64,000 nt of DNA from Escherichia coli (GTDB lineage: Bacteria; Pseudomonadota; Gammaproteobacteria; Enterobacterales; Enterobacteriaceae): the NCBI RefSeq assembly GCF_013315695.1, contig NZ_CP054353.1. The stretch is one strand, 5' to 3'. A program made the translations under genes and the position numbers. How positions within the stretch are numbered: position 1 is the stretch's first letter; the number at the start of each line of letters is the position of its first letter. Under the pieces are notes generated by a model. It did not search any database, had not been told where the DNA came from, and saw nothing but the letters and a program-made list of their open reading frames with translations. Below are positions 4,915 through 25,451 of this stretch, in pieces.

Positions 4915-5567
4915 TGAGTAATAAATATTGCCAGGCGCTGGTGGAACTGCGGAACAAACCAGCCCATGAACTGAAGGAAGTGGGCGATCAGTGGCGCACG
5001 CCGGACAACATTTTCTGGGGAATTAACACCCTGTTTGGCCCGTTTGTTCTGGATCTGTTCACTGACGGTGATAACGCCAAATGTGCTGCGTATTACACTG
5101 CGGAAGACAACGCGCTGGCGCATGACTGGTCTGAACGTCTTGCGGAGCTTAAAGGTGCTGCCTTTGGTAATCCCCCGTACAGCCGCGCCAGTCAGCATGA
5201 GGGGCAATACATCACCGGCATGCGTTACATCATGAAACATGCCAGTGCCATGCGTGATAAAGGCGGGCGCTATGTTTTCCTGATCAAAGCTGCCACCAGC
5301 GAAGTGTGGTGGCCGGAAGATGCAGATCATATTGCTTTTATTCGCGGGCGTATTGGTTTTGAACTGCCTGCCTGGTTTATCCCGAAAGACGAAAAGCAGG
5401 TGCCAACAGGTGCTTTCTTCGCTGGTGCTATTGCTGTTTTCGACAAGACCTGGAAGGGACCGGCAATCAGCTACATAGGGCGCGATGAACTTGAGGCATG
5501 TGGTGAGGCGTTTCTGGCGCAGGTTCGCCAGCAGGCGGAAAAACTGGTCAGGGAGATGGCGGCATGA
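4914..5567 (+). CDS. Phage-type DNA N6-adenine methyltransferase (Dam family)
   Basis: 217 aa from ATG 4914 (TAATG overlap); catalytic NPPY motif (AAFGNPPYS); typical lambdoid nin-region gene. Confidence 0.8.
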   Translation: MSNKYCQALVELRNKPAHELKEVGDQWRTPDNIFWGINTLFGPFVLDLFTDGDNAKCAAYYTAEDNALAHDWSERLAELKGAAFGNPPYSRASQHEGQYITGMRYIMKHASAMRDKGGRYVFLIKAATSEVWWPEDADHIAFIRGRIGFELPAWFIPKDEKQVPTGAFFAGAIAVFDKTWKGPAISYIGRDELEACGEAFLAQVRQQAEKLVREMAA

Positions 5568-5890
5568 CGACGTTAACTCAATGCCAGCAGCAGGTGCTGG
5601 ATATGCTGATTTCTTATCAGAAAGAACGTGGCTTCCCGCCAACCAATCAGGAGGTGGCAACCATGCTGGGATACCGTTCGGTGAATGCAGCGGTGGAGCA
5701 TCTTCGCGCACTGGAGAAAAAAGGCGTCATCACGATAAAGCGTGGCGTGGCCCGGGGGATAACGCTTCATACTGCGATGAAGGACGACGACAGCGAGGCG
5801 GTCGGGATTATCCGCGCACTGCTTGCCGGTGAGGAAAACGCAAGGCTGCGTGCAACCCACTGGTTACATGAGAGGGGCCTGAAAGTATGA
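5564..5890 (+). CDS. LexA DNA-binding-domain-like protein lacking the S24 peptidase domain
   Basis: 108 aa; QQQVLDMLISYQKERGFPPTNQEVATMLGYRSVNAAVEHLRALEKKGVI parallels the LexA N-terminal winged helix ([50 protein letters not shown]). Confidence 0.75.
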   Translation: MTTLTQCQQQVLDMLISYQKERGFPPTNQEVATMLGYRSVNAAVEHLRALEKKGVITIKRGVARGITLHTAMKDDDSEAVGIIRALLAGEENARLRATHWLHERGLKV

Positions 5891-6282
5891 AGCTAATACT
5901 GCCTTTTCCGCCCAGCGTGAACACGTACTGGCGACACCCCAACAAAGGGGCGTTTGCTGGTAAGAGCCTGATAAGCGCGGCGGGGCGAAAATTCCAGAGC
6001 GCGGCGTGTGCAGCAATAGTTGAGCAGTTACGTCGTCTGCCGAAACCAACGTCGGCACCTGCTTCAGTGGAGATCGTGTTGTTTCCTCCGGATAACCGGA
6101 TCCGCGATCTGGACAACTATAACAAGGCGCTGTTTGACGCCCTGACCCACGCGGGTGTGTGGGAAGACGACAGTCAGGTGAAAAGAATGCTGGTGGAGTG
6201 GGGACCGGTTATCCCGGAGGGGAAGGTCGAGATCACTATCAGTAAGTACGAAAAAGCGAGTTGCAAATTAGCAACTCGGTAA
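5887..6282 (+). CDS. rusA: RusA Holliday-junction resolvase
   Basis: 131 aa; characteristic DLDNYNKALFDALTHAGVWEDDSQV; ATGA coupling. Confidence 0.85.
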   Translation: MKLILPFPPSVNTYWRHPNKGAFAGKSLISAAGRKFQSAACAAIVEQLRRLPKPTSAPASVEIVLFPPDNRIRDLDNYNKALFDALTHAGVWEDDSQVKRMLVEWGPVIPEGKVEITISKYEKASCKLATR

Positions 6283-18308: not shown

Positions 18309-18818
18309 GTGGCTACGCAGACTGAAGTTGCCAGGCATTTAAGTCTGACCGATCGCCAGCTTCGCAGATTGCAGAAATTGCCGGGTGCCCCGATATCGAA
18401 TAAGCGAGGGCAACTGGATCTGGATGCCTGGCGCGATTTTTACATATCGTATCTGAGAAGAAGTAAAAACGATGTGCCTGATGGCGATAGCGAAGACGAC
18501 TATGAGGAGAAATTGCTTATTGCCAGATGGGAACTGACAGCAGAACAGGCTGTTACACAGCAGTTAAAAAATGAGGTGTCAAAAGGAAAACTTATTGACA
18601 CCGGGTTCTGTATTTTTGCCCTCAGCAAGCTGGCAATGGCGTTATCCAGTACGCTTGATTCCATCCCTTTATCCATGCAGCGACAGTTTCCTGATTTAAC
18701 ACCGCGCCATCTTGACCATCTGAAAACCCTTATTGCGAAGGGGGCAAATCAGTGTGCGCGGGCGGGGGATAAATTACCGGATTTACTCGATGAATATATC
18801 AGAGCAACAACTGAATAA
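18309..18818 (+). CDS. nu1: Terminase small subunit (lambda Nu1 homolog)
   Basis: C-terminal half ...TGFCIFALSKLAMALSSTLDSIPLSMQRQFPDLTPRHLDHLK...LLDEYI parallels lambda Nu1; GTG start downstream of cos. Confidence 0.85.
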   Translation: MATQTEVARHLSLTDRQLRRLQKLPGAPISNKRGQLDLDAWRDFYISYLRRSKNDVPDGDSEDDYEEKLLIARWELTAEQAVTQQLKNEVSKGKLIDTGFCIFALSKLAMALSSTLDSIPLSMQRQFPDLTPRHLDHLKTLIAKGANQCARAGDKLPDLLDEYIRATTE

Positions 18819-20707
18819 TATGATGAGTGCTGTCACAACAGCATTACAGCCCCTGATAAGGGCATTGCCGGTGACGCCAGTTGAATGGGCTGATCAAAAT
18901 TATTATCTGCCTAAAGAATCTTCATATGGTGAGGGAGAATGGAAAACGCTGCCGTTCCAGATCGCCATCATGAACAGCATGGGGAATGATCAGATCCGGA
19001 CTGTTAATCTGATTAAATCTGCCCGTGTTGGCTATACAAAGATGTTGCTGGGGGTGGTCGGGTATTTTATTGAGCATAAATCCCGAAACAGTCTGCTTTT
19101 TCAGCCCACGGATTCTGCCGCTGAAGATTTTATGAAGTCTCACGTGGAGGCGACGATTCGGGATGTGCCATGTCTGAAAGACCTTTCTCCATGGCTGGGG
19201 CGTAAACATCGTGACAATACTCTCACGCTGAAACGCTTTTCATCGGGTGTGGGCTTCTGGTGCCTGGGCGGCGCTGCCGCCAAAAACTACCGTGAAAAAT
19301 CCGTGGACGTGGTCTGCTATGACGAACTTTCCTCGTTCGAACCGGATGTCGAAAAAGAGGGTTCGCCAACCCTGCTTGGGGATAAACGTATTGAGGGCTC
19401 TGTATGGCCCAAATCCATTCGCGGCTCGACGCCTAAAATCAAAGGCACCTGCCAGATCGAAAAAGCGGCCAACGAGTCGGCGCATTTCATGCGTTTTTAT
19501 GTGCCCTGCCCGCACTGTGGGGAGGCGCAGTATCTGAAATTTGGCGATGAGTCCACGCCTTTTGGCCTTAAATGGGAGAAGGACAGCCCCGAAAGCGTTT
19601 TCTACCTCTGTGAACATCATGGCTGCGTGATCCATCAGTCTGAGCTTGACCAGAGCAACGGGCGGTGGATCTGTGAAAACACGGGGATGTGGACCCGCGA
19701 CGGTCTGACGTTTTTCAGCGCTGCGGATAATGAAATTCCGCCGCCGCGCTCCATCACATTCCATATCTGGACGGCGTACAGTCCGTTCACCACCTGGGTA
19801 CAGATTGTCTATGACTGGCTGGATGCACTGAAAGATCCCAACGGCCTGAAAACCTTTGTGAACACCACGCTGGGCGAGACCTGGGAAGAGGCCGTGGGCG
19901 AAAAACTCGATCACCAGGTGCTGATGGATAAGGTTGTGCGTTACACGGCTGCGGTGCCTTCCCGGGTGGTTTATCTGACGGCGGGCATTGACTCGCAGCG
20001 AAACCGTTTTGAGATGTATGTCTGGGGATGGGCTCCGGGAGAGGAAGCCTTTCTGGTGGATAAAATCATCATTATGGGGCGTCCCGATGAGGAAGAGACG
20101 CTGTTACGTGTGGATGTGGCGATCAACAAAAAATACCGCCATGCAGACGGAACCGAAATGACCATTTCCCGTGTCTGCTGGGACACCGGGGGGAATTGTC
20201 TATCAGAGGTCAAAAAAACACGGTGTTTTCCGGGTGCTGCCGGTAAAAGGTGCATCTGTTTATGGCAAGCCGGTGATCACCATGCCAAAAACCCGCAATC
20301 AGCGGGGCGTGTATCTGTGCGAAGTGGGGACGGACACCGCAAAAGAAATTCTCTATGCCCGTATGAAAGCCGATCCCACGCCTGCGGATGAAGCCACGTC
20401 GTATGCCATCCGTTTTCCTGATGATCCGGAGATTTTTTCGCAGACAGAGGCGCAGCAACTGGTGGCGGAAGAGCTTGTGGAGAAGTGGGAAAAAGGAAAG
20501 ATGCGTCTGCTGTGGGATAACAAAAAGCGGCGTAACGAAGCGCTGGACTGCCTGGTGTATGCCTACGCGGCATTACGTGTGTCCGTGCAACGCTGGCAGC
20601 TTGATCTGGCTGTACTGGCAAAATCCCGGGAAGAAGAGACGACCCGGCCAACCCTTAAAGAACTGGCAGCGAAGCTGTCCGGAGGAGTGAATGGTTACAG
20701 TCGCTGA
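18790..20707 (+). CDS. A: Terminase large subunit (lambda gpA homolog) with an apparent +1 frameshift in a G6 run near 20188-20193
   Basis: Two overlapping ORFs (18733..20391 and 20171..20707) together align with lambda gpA (...ISRVCWDTGG | IVYQRSKKHGVFRV...); the frame changes at CCGGGGGGAATT. Confidence 0.8.
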
Positions 20708-20897: not shown

Positions 20898-22486
20898 AAC
20901 GAACGCCTGTCCTGATTGATGTGAACGGCGTTCCGCTTCGGGAGAGCCTCAGCTACAACGGTGGCGGTGCAGGATTTGGCGGGCAAATGGCAGAGTGGTT
21001 GCCACCCTCGCAGAGTGCCGATGCGGCCCTGCTGCCCGCGTTGCGTCTGGGGAATGCCCGTGCAGATGATCTGGTGCGCAATAACGGAATAGCGGCCAAT
21101 GCGGTGGCCCTGCATAAGGATCACATTGTCGGGCATATGTTTCTGATCAGTTACCGTCCGAACTGGCGCTGGCTGGGGATGCGGGAGACCGCGGCAAAAA
21201 GTTTTGTCGATGAGGTGGAGGCGGCCTGGTCAGAATACGCAGAAGGGATGTTTGGTGAGATCGACATGGAAGGGAAACGCACGTTCACGGAATTTATCCG
21301 TGAAGGTGTGGGCGTTCATGCGTTTAACGGCGAAATCTTTGTGCAGCCGGTCTGGGATACGGAGAGCACGCAACTGTTTCGTACGCGTTTTAAAGCCGTG
21401 AGTCCGAAACGGGTGGACACGCCAGGACACGGTATGGGGAACCGTTTTCTGCGGGCCGGTGTGGAGGTCGATCGATATGGTCGTGCCGTTGCGTACCATA
21501 TCTGTGAGGATGATTTTCCTCGCTCCGGGAGTGGACGATGGGAACGGATCCCGCGTGAACTTCCCACCGGGCGTCCGGCCATGCTGCATATTTTCGAGCC
21601 GGTGGAGGACGGGCAGACCCGTGGGGCCAATCAGTTTTACAGCGTAATGGAACGGCTGAAGATGCTCGATTCCCTGCAGGCAACACAGCTTCAGTCGGCC
21701 ATAGTGAAGGCGATGTATGCAGCGACGATTGAAAGTGAACTTGATACCGAAAAGGCCTTTGAATATATCGCCGGTGCGCCGCAGGGGCAGAAGGATAATC
21801 CGCTTATTAATATTCTGGAGAAGTTCTCCACCTGGTATGACACGAATAGCGTGACGCTGGGCGGTGTCAAAATTCCGCACCTTTTCCCCGGTGATGATCT
21901 GAAACTTCAGACCGCGCAGGATTCAGACAATGGATTTTCGGCGCTTGAACAGGCGCTGCTGCGGTATATCGCCGCCGGTCTTGGCGTTTCCTACGAACAG
22001 TTGTCCCGTGATTACTCGAAGGTCAGTTATTCAAGTGCCCGCGCATCCGCCAATGAGTCGTGGCGCTATTTTATGGGGCGGCGAAAATTTATTGCGTCCC
22101 GGCTGGCCACGCAGATGTTTTCCTGCTGGCTGGAAGAGGCACTTCTTCGGGGGATTATTCGTCCGCCACGGGCGCGTTTTGATTTTTATCAGGCGCGATC
22201 AGCCTGGTCACGGGCTGAGTGGATTGGAGCCGGAAGAATGGCCATTGACGGGCTCAAGGAGGTTCAGGAATCAGTGATGCGCATTGAGGCCGGACTGAGC
22301 ACGTATGAGAAAGAGCTGGCGCTGATGGGCGAGGATTATCAGGACATTTTCCGCCAGCAGGTCAGGGAATCTGCAGAGCGGGAAAAAGCCGGACTCTCAC
22401 GTCCGGTGTGGATAGCGCAGGCGTATCAGCAGCAGATAGCGGAGAGTCGCAGGCCGGAAGAGGAGACAACACCACGTGAGACGTAA
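20894..22486 (+). CDS. B: Portal protein gpB
   Basis: 530 aa; lambda-like order and size; ATGA coupling with W. Confidence 0.85.
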   Translation: MKRTPVLIDVNGVPLRESLSYNGGGAGFGGQMAEWLPPSQSADAALLPALRLGNARADDLVRNNGIAANAVALHKDHIVGHMFLISYRPNWRWLGMRETAAKSFVDEVEAAWSEYAEGMFGEIDMEGKRTFTEFIREGVGVHAFNGEIFVQPVWDTESTQLFRTRFKAVSPKRVDTPGHGMGNRFLRAGVEVDRYGRAVAYHICEDDFPRSGSGRWERIPRELPTGRPAMLHIFEPVEDGQTRGANQFYSVMERLKMLDSLQATQLQSAIVKAMYAATIESELDTEKAFEYIAGAPQGQKDNPLINILEKFSTWYDTNSVTLGGVKIPHLFPGDDLKLQTAQDSDNGFSALEQALLRYIAAGLGVSYEQLSRDYSKVSYSSARASANESWRYFMGRRKFIASRLATQMFSCWLEEALLRGIIRPPRARFDFYQARSAWSRAEWIGAGRMAIDGLKEVQESVMRIEAGLSTYEKELALMGEDYQDIFRQQVRESAEREKAGLSRPVWIAQAYQQQIAESRRPEEETTPRET

Positions 22487-23981
22487 TCTTTCACACATTA
22501 TTGCCGCAGCATTCAATGAACCGCTGCTTCTGGAGCCCGCCTATGCGCGGGTTTTCTTTTGCGCGCTCGGGCGCGAGATGGGGGCAGCAAGTCTTTCGGT
22601 ACCGCAACAGCAGGTACAGCTTGATGCTCCCGGGATGCTGGCTGAAACGGACGAGTACATGGCCGGAGGTAAACGACCGGCCCGTGTTTACCGGGTGGTG
22701 AACGGTATTGCGGTACTGCCGGTGACCGGCACGCTGGTGCACCGGCTGGGGGGGATGCGGCCATTTTCCGGAATGACTGGCTATGACGGCATTGTCGCCT
22801 GTCTTCAGCAGGCAATGGCAGATAGCCAGGTGCGGGGCATACTGCTGGACATTGACAGTCCGGGCGGGCAGGCCGCCGGCGCGTTTGACTGCGCTGACAT
22901 GATTTACCGCCTCCGGCAGCAGAAGCCGGTCTGGGCACTGTGTAATGACACGGCCTGTTCTGCAGCCATGCTGCTGGCGTCGGCCTGCTCCCGACGGCTG
23001 GTTACCCAGACATCCCGTATCGGCTCCATTGGCGTGATGATGAGCCATGTCAGCTATGCCGGTCATCTGGCGCAGGCCGGTGTGGATATCACGCTGATTT
23101 ACTCAGGAGCGCACAAGGTGGATGGCAATCAGTTTGAAGCGTTGCCGGCAGAGGTTCGCCAGGACATGCAGCAGCGGATTGATGCGGCGCGCCGGATGTT
23201 TGCCGAAAAAGTGGCGATGTATACCGGTCTGTCTGTTGATGCGGTCACGGGAACAGAGGCTGCCGTTTTTGAAGGTCAGTCCGGCATTGAGGCCGGGCTG
23301 GCGGATGAATTAATCAATGCGTCGGATGCCATCAGTGTGATGGCCACGGCGCTGAACAGTAATGTCAGAGGAGGCACTATGCCGCAATTAACTGCAACGG
23401 AAGCCGCCGTGCAGGAGAACCAGCGAGTGATGGGGATCCTGACATGCCAGGAAGCGAAAGGACGTGAACAGCTTGCCACGATGCTGGCAGGGCAACAGGG
23501 CATGAGCGTTGAACAGGCCCGGGCGATTCTGGCCGCGGCGGCACCGCAGCAGCCGGTGGCATCCGCACAGAGTGAAGCCGATCGCATTATGGCGTGTGAA
23601 GAAGCGAACGGTCGTGAACAACTGGCGGCAACGCTGGCGGCGATGCCGGAGATGACGGTGGAAAAAGCCCGCCCGATCCTGGCTGCTTCACCGCAGGCGA
23701 ATGCCGGACCATCACTCCGTGATCAGATCATGGCACTGGATGAGGCAAAAGGGGCTGAGGCGCAGGCTGAACAGCTGGCTGCCTGCCCGGGAATGACTGT
23801 GGAGAGCGCCCGGGCTGTGCTGGCTGCGGGATCAGGTAAGGCAGAACCGGTCTCTGCATCCACAACCGCCCTGTTTGAACATTTCATGGCGAACCATTCA
23901 CCGGCTGCGGTCCAGGGGGGCGTGTCACAGGCGTCAGAAGACGGTGATGCGGACGTGAAAATGCTCATGGCCATGCCATGA
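22476..23981 (+). CDS. C: Head maturation protease / scaffold (gpC with Nu3-like C-terminus, S49 peptidase)
   Basis: N-terminus AAFNEPLLLEPAYARVFFCAL and GIAVLPVTGTLVHR...SGMTGYDGI parallel lambda C; three tandem ~37-aa repeats in the C-terminus. Confidence 0.85.
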   Translation: MRRNLSHIIAAAFNEPLLLEPAYARVFFCALGREMGAASLSVPQQQVQLDAPGMLAETDEYMAGGKRPARVYRVVNGIAVLPVTGTLVHRLGGMRPFSGMTGYDGIVACLQQAMADSQVRGILLDIDSPGGQAAGAFDCADMIYRLRQQKPVWALCNDTACSAAMLLASACSRRLVTQTSRIGSIGVMMSHVSYAGHLAQAGVDITLIYSGAHKVDGNQFEALPAEVRQDMQQRIDAARRMFAEKVAMYTGLSVDAVTGTEAAVFEGQSGIEAGLADELINASDAISVMATALNSNVRGGTMPQLTATEAAVQENQRVMGILTCQEAKGREQLATMLAGQQGMSVEQARAILAAAAPQQPVASAQSEADRIMACEEANGREQLAATLAAMPEMTVEKARPILAASPQANAGPSLRDQIMALDEAKGAEAQAEQLAACPGMTVESARAVLAAGSGKAEPVSASTTALFEHFMANHSPAAVQGGVSQASEDGDADVKMLMAMP

Positions 23982-24017: not shown

Positions 24018-24365
24018 ATGGTGACGAAAACCATCACTGAACAGCGTGCGGAAGTACGTATTTTTGCCGGTAATGATCCGGCTCACACCGCCACAGGCAG
24101 CAGCGGGATTTCCTCGGCAACACCGGCACTGACACCCCTGATGCTGGATGGGGCCACCGGGAAACTGGTGGTCTGGGACGGACAGAAAGCCGGTAGTGCG
24201 GTTGGCATACTGGTACTGCCGCTTGAAGGCACAGAGGAGGTGCTGACCTATTACAAGTCGGGGACCTTTGCGACGGAGGCAATCCGCTGGCCTGAAAGTG
24301 TGGATGAACACAAAAAGGCCAACGCCTTTACCGGCAGTGCCCTGAGTCACGCGGCGCTGCCGTAA
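24018..24365 (+). CDS. D: Head decoration protein gpD
   Basis: 115 aa; NDPAHTATGSSG...TPLMLD...KLVVWDG...AVGILVLP parallels lambda D. Confidence 0.85.
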   Translation: MVTKTITEQRAEVRIFAGNDPAHTATGSSGISSATPALTPLMLDGATGKLVVWDGQKAGSAVGILVLPLEGTEEVLTYYKSGTFATEAIRWPESVDEHKKANAFTGSALSHAALP

Positions 24366-24422: not shown

Positions 24423-25451
24423 ATGGGATTGTTTACGACCCGCCAGTTACTCGGTTATACCGAACAAAAAGTTAAATTCCGTGCGCTGTTTCTGGAGCTG
24501 TTTTTCCGCCGTACGGTGAATTTCCACACCGAAGAGGTGATGCTGGACAAAATTACCGGAAAAACGCCGGTGGCGGCCTATGTCTCCCCGATCGTTGAAG
24601 GAAAAGTGCTTCGCCATCGCGGTGGTGAAACCCGCGTGTTACGTCCGGGCTACGTCAAGCCCAAACACGAATTTAATTACCAGCAGGCGGTTGAGCGCCT
24701 TCCTGGTGAAGATCCGGCTCAGCTGAACGACCCGGCCTACCGTCGTCTGCGTATCATTACCGATAACCTCAAACAGGAAGAGCACGCCATTGTCCAGGTG
24801 GAAGAAATGCAGGCGGTGAATGCCGTGCTGTATGGCAAATACACCATGGAAGGGGATCAGTTTGATACTGTCGAGGTGGATTTCGGGCGCTCTGAAGGAA
24901 ATAACATTGAGCAGGCTGACGGTAAAAAATGGTCTGAGCAGGACCGTGATACGTTTGATCCGACGCATGATATTGACCTCTACTGCGATCAGGCCAGCGG
25001 CCTTGTGAATATCGCCATTATGGACGGTACGGTCTGGCGTCTGCTGAATGGCTTTAAGCTGTTCCGCGAAAAACTGGATACCCGTCGCGGCTCAAATTCA
25101 CAACTCGAAACGGCAGTGAAAGATCTGGGGGCGGTGGTGTCCTTCAAGGGGTATTACGGCGATCTGGCCATTGTGGTGGCGAAAACGTCTTATGTGGCAG
25201 AGGACGGTACCGAAAAACGTTATCTGCCGGAGGGCATGCTGGTGCTGGGGAATACGGCAGCAGAGGGCATTCGTTGCTATGGTGCCATTCAGGATGCGCA
25301 GGCGTTGTCCGAAGGTGTGGTGGCCTCTTCCCGTTACCCGAAACACTGGCTGACCGTGGGCGATCCGGCCCGTGAATTCACCATGACGCAGTCCGCACCG
25401 CTGATGGTGCTGCCGGATCCGGATGAGTTTGTGGTGGTACAGGTGAAATAA
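24423..25451 (+). CDS. E: Major capsid protein gpE
   Basis: 342 aa; YVSPIVEGKVLRHRGGETRVLRPGYVKPKHE ... TGDPAREFTMTQSAPLM parallel lambda E. Confidence 0.9.
   Translation: MGLFTTRQLLGYTEQKVKFRALFLELFFRRTVNFHTEEVMLDKITGKTPVAAYVSPIVEGKVLRHRGGETRVLRPGYVKPKHEFNYQQAVERLPGEDPAQLNDPAYRRLRIITDNLKQEEHAIVQVEEMQAVNAVLYGKYTMEGDQFDTVEVDFGRSEGNNIEQADGKKWSEQDRDTFDPTHDIDLYCDQASGLVNIAIMDGTVWRLLNGFKLFREKLDTRRGSNSQLETAVKDLGAVVSFKGYYGDLAIVVAKTSYVAEDGTEKRYLPEGMLVLGNTAAEGIRCYGAIQDAQALSEGVVASSRYPKHWLTVGDPAREFTMTQSAPLMVLPDPDEFVVVQVK

Follow-up and report, generated by a model that had tools for sequence, protein, structure and literature searches.

Does the C-terminal part of a lambda-type prohead protease gene in Escherichia coli carry a genuine triple repeat, how does it compare with phage lambda, and what could such a repeat do during head assembly? 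These questions are raised by a gene in a 64,000-nucleotide stretch of E. coli DNA (contig NZ_CP054353.1), called the window throughout. We consider it close to certain that the gene is a prophage head gene of the phage 21 type and that its three repeats are the boxes Tri1, Tri2 and Tri3. The triplication is already known from coliphage 21, in which it was annotated about thirty years ago, in the early 1990s. The repeat is an ordinary, resolved feature of a gene that is among the commonest in E. coli prophages, and our additions are incremental, namely the size of the family, the distribution of copy number, the age of the repeat, the constraint acting on it and a confident predicted fold of the module.

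A lambda-type protease gene with a nested scaffold gene

The predicted product of the 22476-23981 reading frame is an S49 prohead protease of the lambda C / phage 21 gene 5 family. Its match to the Pfam family PF01343 scored 121.6 bits against a cutoff of 24.9, a PDB sequence search returned the SppA structures 3rst and 4kwb with an E-value of about 3e-16, and the Ser of its CSAAM segment aligns with the Ser of the AASGG segment of SppA. With the E-value of the Pfam match (Table 1) and 53% identity to lambda gpC over 412 columns, the assignment to a gpC-type protease made in an earlier, sequence-only reading of the window is borne out. The 501-aa protein is 100% identical to WP_016238736, an 'S49 family peptidase' of E. 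coli NMBU_W05E18. Its GTG start lies inside the 3′ end of the portal gene, so that the two genes overlap. The order of the head genes in the window (terminase, W-like gene, portal, protease/scaffold, decoration protein, major capsid protein) is of the lambda type. The corresponding operon position, with the portal gene before and the decoration and major capsid genes after, was found in the window, in NMBU_W05E18 and in one distant relative.

The last 200 residues of the protease are predicted to be made also as a separate scaffolding protein, through a nested in-frame start codon that is preceded by a strong ribosome-binding site (Table 1). Homologues from Salmonella and elsewhere keep the Met of this start, from which gene callers predict separate products of 199-206 aa. 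The repeats are located in the segment common to the protease and the nested Nu3-like gene, in agreement with their earlier placement in a C-terminal, scaffold-like part.

The state of the prophage was also noted. The large terminase gene (18733-20707 in the window) is split into overlapping frames at 18733-20391 and 20171-20707. Compared with phage 21 and E. coli NMBU_W05E18 (intact, 1929 nt), 11 bp (ATCGATGGCGA) are missing after ACCGGGGGG at about 20194. Owing to this frameshift the prophage is probably packaging-defective, unless the assembly is in error.

Table 1. Features of the protease/scaffold gene and its surroundings; positions are those of the window
Feature	Position	Strand	Remarks and basis
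Protease/scaffold gene (lambda C / phage 21 gene 5 counterpart)	22476..23981	+	Prohead protease/scaffold, 501 aa; ORF list and phage 21 match
S49 (SppA-like) peptidase domain, aa 146-293	22911..23354	+	Pfam PF01343, E = 3.8e-35
Shine-Dalgarno GAGGAGG	23368..23374	+	4 nt upstream of the nested ATG; putative gene 6 RBS in M81255 and OL657228
Nested in-frame scaffold gene (phage 21 gene 6, lambda Nu3 analogue)	23379..23981	+	200 aa; CDS in both phage 21 records
Box 1, aa 316-358	23421..23549	+	GenBank 'Tri1 box' = 23446-23549; counterpart of the single box of lambda
Linker 1, aa 359-368	23550..23579	+	Predicted disordered; pLDDT <50 at Nu3 residues 56-63; dN/dS 0.38
Box 2, aa 369-407	23580..23696	+	GenBank 'Tri box' = 23586-23696
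Linker 2, aa 408-415	23697..23720	+	Alignment and structure model
Box 3, aa 416-455	23721..23840	+	GenBank 'Tri3 box' = 23727-23840
C-terminal tail, aa 456-501	23841..23978	+	Second conserved motif ALFEHFMANHSP and terminal LMAMP; alignment
Decoration-protein gene	24018-24365		Downstream of the protease/scaffold gene; ORF list
Major capsid protein gene	24423-25451		After the decoration-protein gene; ORF list

Three boxes separated by linkers

The repeat strings quoted in the sequence-only reading match the translation of the reading frame exactly, and three repeats are indeed present. Their description as tandem units of 37 residues did not hold in its strict head-to-tail form: the repeats are modules of 39-43 aa, here called boxes, that are split by linkers. 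The interval that had been assigned to them, 23380-23830, runs from the nested start codon to a point 10 nt short of the end of box 3. The boxes are spaced 53 and 47 aa from start to start, and the linkers between them comprise 8-11 aa rich in Pro, Ala, Ser and Gln.

The similarity between the boxes was assessed by local alignment. Box-versus-box BLOSUM62 scores were 101, 86 and 97, compared with shuffle means of about 26 and an SD of about 5 (z = 12.4-15.3). Because the observed score was reached in 0 of 1000 composition-keeping shuffles, the Ala-rich composition does not explain the similarity of the boxes. Core identity among the three is 53-58%. Box 3 is the most divergent copy, reading KGAEAQAE against the family consensus KGREELAE, and in it the near-invariant Arg of GRE is replaced by Ala.

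At the DNA level, Tandem Repeats Finder detected no array in the gene, and a seed-based search returned only imperfect matches of 12-25 nt. A helix-hairpin-helix, DNA-binding reading was tried and rejected, the match to PF00633 reaching 13.1 bits against a cutoff of 24 (E = 0.091) and covering aa 427-450 only.

Behind the boxes, ALFEHFMANHSP (23868-23903, aa 465-476) resembles the first helix of the box (DRIMACEE, DQIMALDE) and also the post-box segment ALDRLMQGAP of lambda. Low-confidence helices were predicted in the tail at Nu3 residues 160-173 and 190-196. Judged from the sequence, a last, incomplete repeat with helix 1 only may close the array.

Correspondence with the Tri boxes of phage 21

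The gene matches that of phage 21 (AAA32343/UMO75420) with 98.2% nucleotide identity over an ungapped 1506 nt. The phage 21 record M81255 holds three repeat_region features in gene 6, named 'Tri1 box', 'Tri box' and 'Tri3 box' and annotated as 'function unknown; putative'. Their coordinates (5542-5645, 5682-5792 and 5823-5936) map onto the Tri segments listed in Table 1 and coincide with the boxes that were found independently in the window. The source of this annotation is presumably the paper of Smith and Feiss in Gene in 1993. No mention of a 'Tri box' was found in our literature search.

The complete phage 21 genome OL657228 carries a further annotation within the gene. A 'CII binding site' of the pattern ttgynnnnnnttgy is marked on the minus strand at two places, which correspond to 23384-23397 and 23618-23631; the plus strand of the window reads GCAATTAACTGCAA and ACAACTGGCGGCAA there. 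Since the pattern is degenerate, these matches probably arose by chance.

Predicted fold of the box

The fold of the repeat region was modelled with AlphaFold2. For the 200-aa scaffold protein, an alignment of 18 sequences gave three helices per box with a pLDDT of 70-80. The linkers were of low confidence, and the arrangement between boxes was not fixed in this model (pTM 0.27). Box 1 with its upstream helix, modelled from 104 diverse homologues, formed a three-helix bundle with a pLDDT of 93.5 and a pTM of 0.76; its helices span residues 3-18, 27-34 and 41-50. Each box is predicted to form a small bundle of this kind by itself. Helices 1 and 2 are joined by a turn that holds the near-invariant EAxGRE, and conservation elsewhere concerns small or hydrophobic residues of helices 2 and 3.

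A fold search of BFVD returned other S49 prohead proteases, including that of a cyanophage, as the only convincing matches (TM 0.86-0.89). No meaningful match was obtained when the whole 200-aa Nu3-like model, with its flexible linkers and pTM of 0.27, was compared with the PDB by Foldseek.

Copy number and size of the box family

As the sequence-only reading had suspected, repeat number varies between phages, and relatives carry from one to four boxes. One box is present in lambda and in P0090. Two were found in P0018, which is without box 2, and in P0022, where boxes 1 and 2 are fused in register. The phage 21 type has three, as do Salmonella homologues such as P0028, and P0040 has four. Lambda gpC has its single box, the counterpart of box 1, at aa 359-400. 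The claim that lambda C/Nu3 holds a related but shorter segment is therefore right, with one box against three, and the count that was made in lambda does not equal that of the window.

To determine the extent of the family, we built a box profile from 23 boxes and searched it against 1.84 billion cluster representatives (clusters at 50% identity). At E <= 1e-3, 961 cluster representatives were found. The best 150 of these 961 were scanned again for the number of boxes: 137 have one, 10 have two and 3 have three. Among the 58 full-length proteases in the best 150, the median distance from the end of the last box to the C-terminus is 49 residues. The near-invariant positions of the box are E, A, G, R, A, L, A, A and L. 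One distant single-box relative lies in a complete lambda-type head module that comprises a GpA terminase, Phage_portal_2, S49, a weak HDPD (decoration) match and Phage_cap_E.

No Pfam or NCBIfam model covers the box. In PDB sequences, the box profile and the Nu3-like protein as queries gave chance-level matches only. In the unassigned 24-residue chain Un of PDB 9hqv, the nine consecutive residues AKGREALAE agree with the box consensus; with an E-value of 0.26, this match is likely due to chance.

Age, selection and natural variants

Boxes 1, 2 and 3 of the window are 81, 75 and 64% identical to the boxes at the same positions in the Salmonella homologue P0028. Positional counterparts (64-81%) are closer to each other than neighbouring boxes within the gene (53-58%), which indicates that the triplication is old and predates the split of the lineages. 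The lack of a repeat at the DNA level likewise points to an old duplication. In P0040, boxes 2-4 are 81-92% alike, and the amplification there is therefore more recent.

Selection was estimated from 60 distinct alleles of loci related to the scaffold alignment, all with at least 89% identity. Every box is under purifying selection, with dN/dS values of 0.14, 0.18 and 0.18 for boxes 1, 2 and 3. In the same alleles, the protease part had a value of 0.12, the tail 0.22, linker 1 0.38 and the N-terminal linker 0.55. Synonymous divergence was two to three times higher in linker 2 and box 3 (23697-23840), with a dS of 0.24-0.32 (0.32 in box 3), than elsewhere in the gene (about 0.10). This rise suggests that the alleles are mosaic or that a recombination boundary lies within the repeat region.

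Of 5426 complete E. coli genomes, 1869 contain the scaffold segment, and a single genome may hold as many as 5 copies. When records were sampled evenly down the match list, the 603-bp segment was intact in 58 of 60 E. coli records, about 97%, and one of the 60 had a 57-bp deletion in box 2. Another record with a gene shorter by 57 bp is a prophage whose other head genes are intact and whose tape-measure gene is frameshifted. The 18 phage records that cover the whole gene are all free of gaps. All natural deletions that we saw fall in box 2, removing part of it or the whole, and because such variants occur in genomes, three copies may not be strictly required. A different kind of variant was seen in two IMG/VR contigs (L063 and L064): in a 1473-nt allele, a late frameshift replaces the last 28 residues, including LMAMP, by the nine residues ERVTGVRRR.

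Possible functions of the boxes

We propose that the boxes serve as protein-docking modules by which scaffold and protease are tied to the assembling shell, trivalently in the present case, and give this proposal about an even chance of being right. For lambda it is established, in outline, that scaffold and protease are brought into the prohead by their common C-terminal part. By far the most conserved element of this part is the box, and we therefore infer that it docks onto the capsid protein or the portal. In the proposed mechanism, each box would attach the scaffold (gp6/Nu3) and the protease (gp5/C) to the inner shell, that is, to the major capsid protein, the portal or both, and the near-invariant EAxGRE turn would form the contact surface. 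With three boxes on flexible linkers, one scaffold molecule would be trivalent and could span adjacent subunits or gain avidity in binding. In lambda, an equal valency may come from self-association of Nu3, with which the equal length and single box of this protein are compatible. The protease would then degrade the scaffold after assembly, a step that is taken from the lambda literature: proteolysis of lambda gpC and degradation of Nu3 during maturation are described in papers cited in PMC12617516 and PMC3224144. For lambda, interactions of Nu3 with E, of Nu3 with itself and of C with Nu3 have been reported, and Nu3 is required for incorporation of the portal (PMC3224144). These interactions, the retention of all three copies and the analogy to tandem three-helix binding modules were counted in favour of docking, and box 3 without its near-invariant Arg and the existence of box 2 deletion variants were counted against it. 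The conserved 40-residue module is an obvious candidate for shell recognition by lambda-type scaffolds and their protease.

The capsid-binding element could, by analogy, lie elsewhere, namely in the separately conserved tail of about 46 residues that follows the boxes. In several other scaffold families, among them those of P22, 80alpha and herpesviruses, the capsid-binding element is at the extreme C-terminus. The box would then be a module for self-association that makes the scaffold-scaffold and scaffold-protease contacts of the internal core, with the tail binding the capsid protein. Nu3-Nu3 and C-Nu3 interactions in lambda (PMC3224144) would fit such a role, as would the conserved motif and the predicted helices after the last box. 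We nevertheless regard it as unlikely: tandem copies in one chain would tend to pair intramolecularly, and the element that is conserved across the 961 clusters is the box, not the tail. The fusion of the box to S49 proteases in the full-length matches, and its place inside a complete lambda-type head module in one distant relative, could also mean that the boxes serve mainly for recognition or cleavage by the protease, with cuts at the EAxGRE turn or in the Ala/Ser-rich linkers, or that they are spacers that set length or volume. Nu3 is degraded by gpC (PMC3224144), and the scaffolds of lambda and phage 21 are of similar length (201 and 200 aa) despite their different architecture. However, a compact bundle that is modelled with confidence would be a poorer protease substrate than disordered linkers, and the linkers, where cuts are expected, are the least constrained segments (dN/dS 0.38-0.55), so that a role as protease sites or spacers seems distinctly improbable.

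The variation in copy number bears on whether all three boxes matter. In-frame deletions that take out part or all of box 2 occur naturally, box 3 has lost the conserved Arg, and 137 of the 150 best relatives have a single box, all of which would fit if an old duplication had left boxes 2 and 3 as functionally redundant copies and box 1 alone were important. The selection data disfavour this view, to which we assign a very small probability: at 0.18, dN/dS of boxes 2 and 3 is near that of box 1 (0.14) and of the protease (0.12). Positional counterparts are also kept between the E. coli and Salmonella lineages, and all three boxes are present in about 97% of the sampled E. coli copies and in 18 of 18 whole-gene phage records. 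A role of the DNA or RNA itself and not of a protein repeat, as a hotspot for repeat-driven recombination or as a group of regulatory sites, could be read from the two CII pattern matches annotated inside the gene in OL657228 and from the in-register deletion and fusion variants between boxes. Such a role is hardly conceivable here, because there is no detectable repeat in the DNA; moreover, it is the protein that is conserved, as the low dN/dS in the plus frame shows, and we estimate that a pattern as degenerate as that of CII is expected by chance several times per 43-kb genome.

Beyond this locus, the proposed docking role of the boxes can be extended tentatively. The box may be an undescribed, widespread domain family and the universal shell-docking module of lambda-type (S49-associated) heads. 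Tandem copies, two to four in a few lineages, would then offer an alternative route to scaffold multivalency, replacing the self-association of single-box scaffolds such as lambda Nu3. We consider this generalization possible but doubtful. The natural variants with one, two, three and four copies are ready test material for work on phage assembly.

Comparison with known systems

The nearest solved folds to the predicted box are three-helix binding modules, which also occur in tandem: the Z domain of protein A (affibody), the albumin-binding GA module, Embp/Ebh and UBA/CUE domains. The coat-binding helix-turn-helix at the C-terminus of the P22 scaffold resembles the box in being small, helical and placed towards the end of a scaffold, with a presumed role in docking on the capsid protein; a two-helix domain of the P22 type, homologous in sequence or fold to gp8 residues 264-303, was not found at the extreme C-terminus of the present protein. 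Analogous capsid-binding ends are known from the scaffolds of phi29, 80alpha and herpesviruses, and the nested arrangement of protease and scaffold is also found in herpesviruses, P2 and Mu.

Like the locus in the window, lambda gpC/Nu3 combines an S49 protease with a scaffold gene nested in frame, at the corresponding site of the head operon, and the two proteases show the sequence identity given above. Lambda differs by a 36-residue insertion rich in Ser, Thr and Ala upstream of its single box. The annotated lambda Nu3 has 201 aa compared with 200 aa here, and is composed of one box and an extra N-terminal segment of about 120 residues, the RefSeq start being 70 codons further upstream than the phage-21-type start and inside the protease domain. 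In lambda (NC_001416), the ATG homologous to the gene 6 start (gpC codon 309, locus 2843) is preceded by AGGAGG at good spacing, whereas no Shine-Dalgarno sequence of similar quality precedes the RefSeq Nu3 start (codon 239, locus 2633). The later site may be the conserved one for the nested scaffold start, and lambda Nu3 would then have about 131 aa. A lambda product of about 131 aa is also predicted by a gene caller (P0107).

The closest known system is phage 21 itself. Its genes 5 and 6 (M81255; complete genome OL657228) have the same length, nested start, RBS and three segments as the locus in the window. Phage 21 differs by allelic changes only, whereas the copy in the window sits in an E. 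coli prophage with the 11-bp deletion in the large terminase gene.
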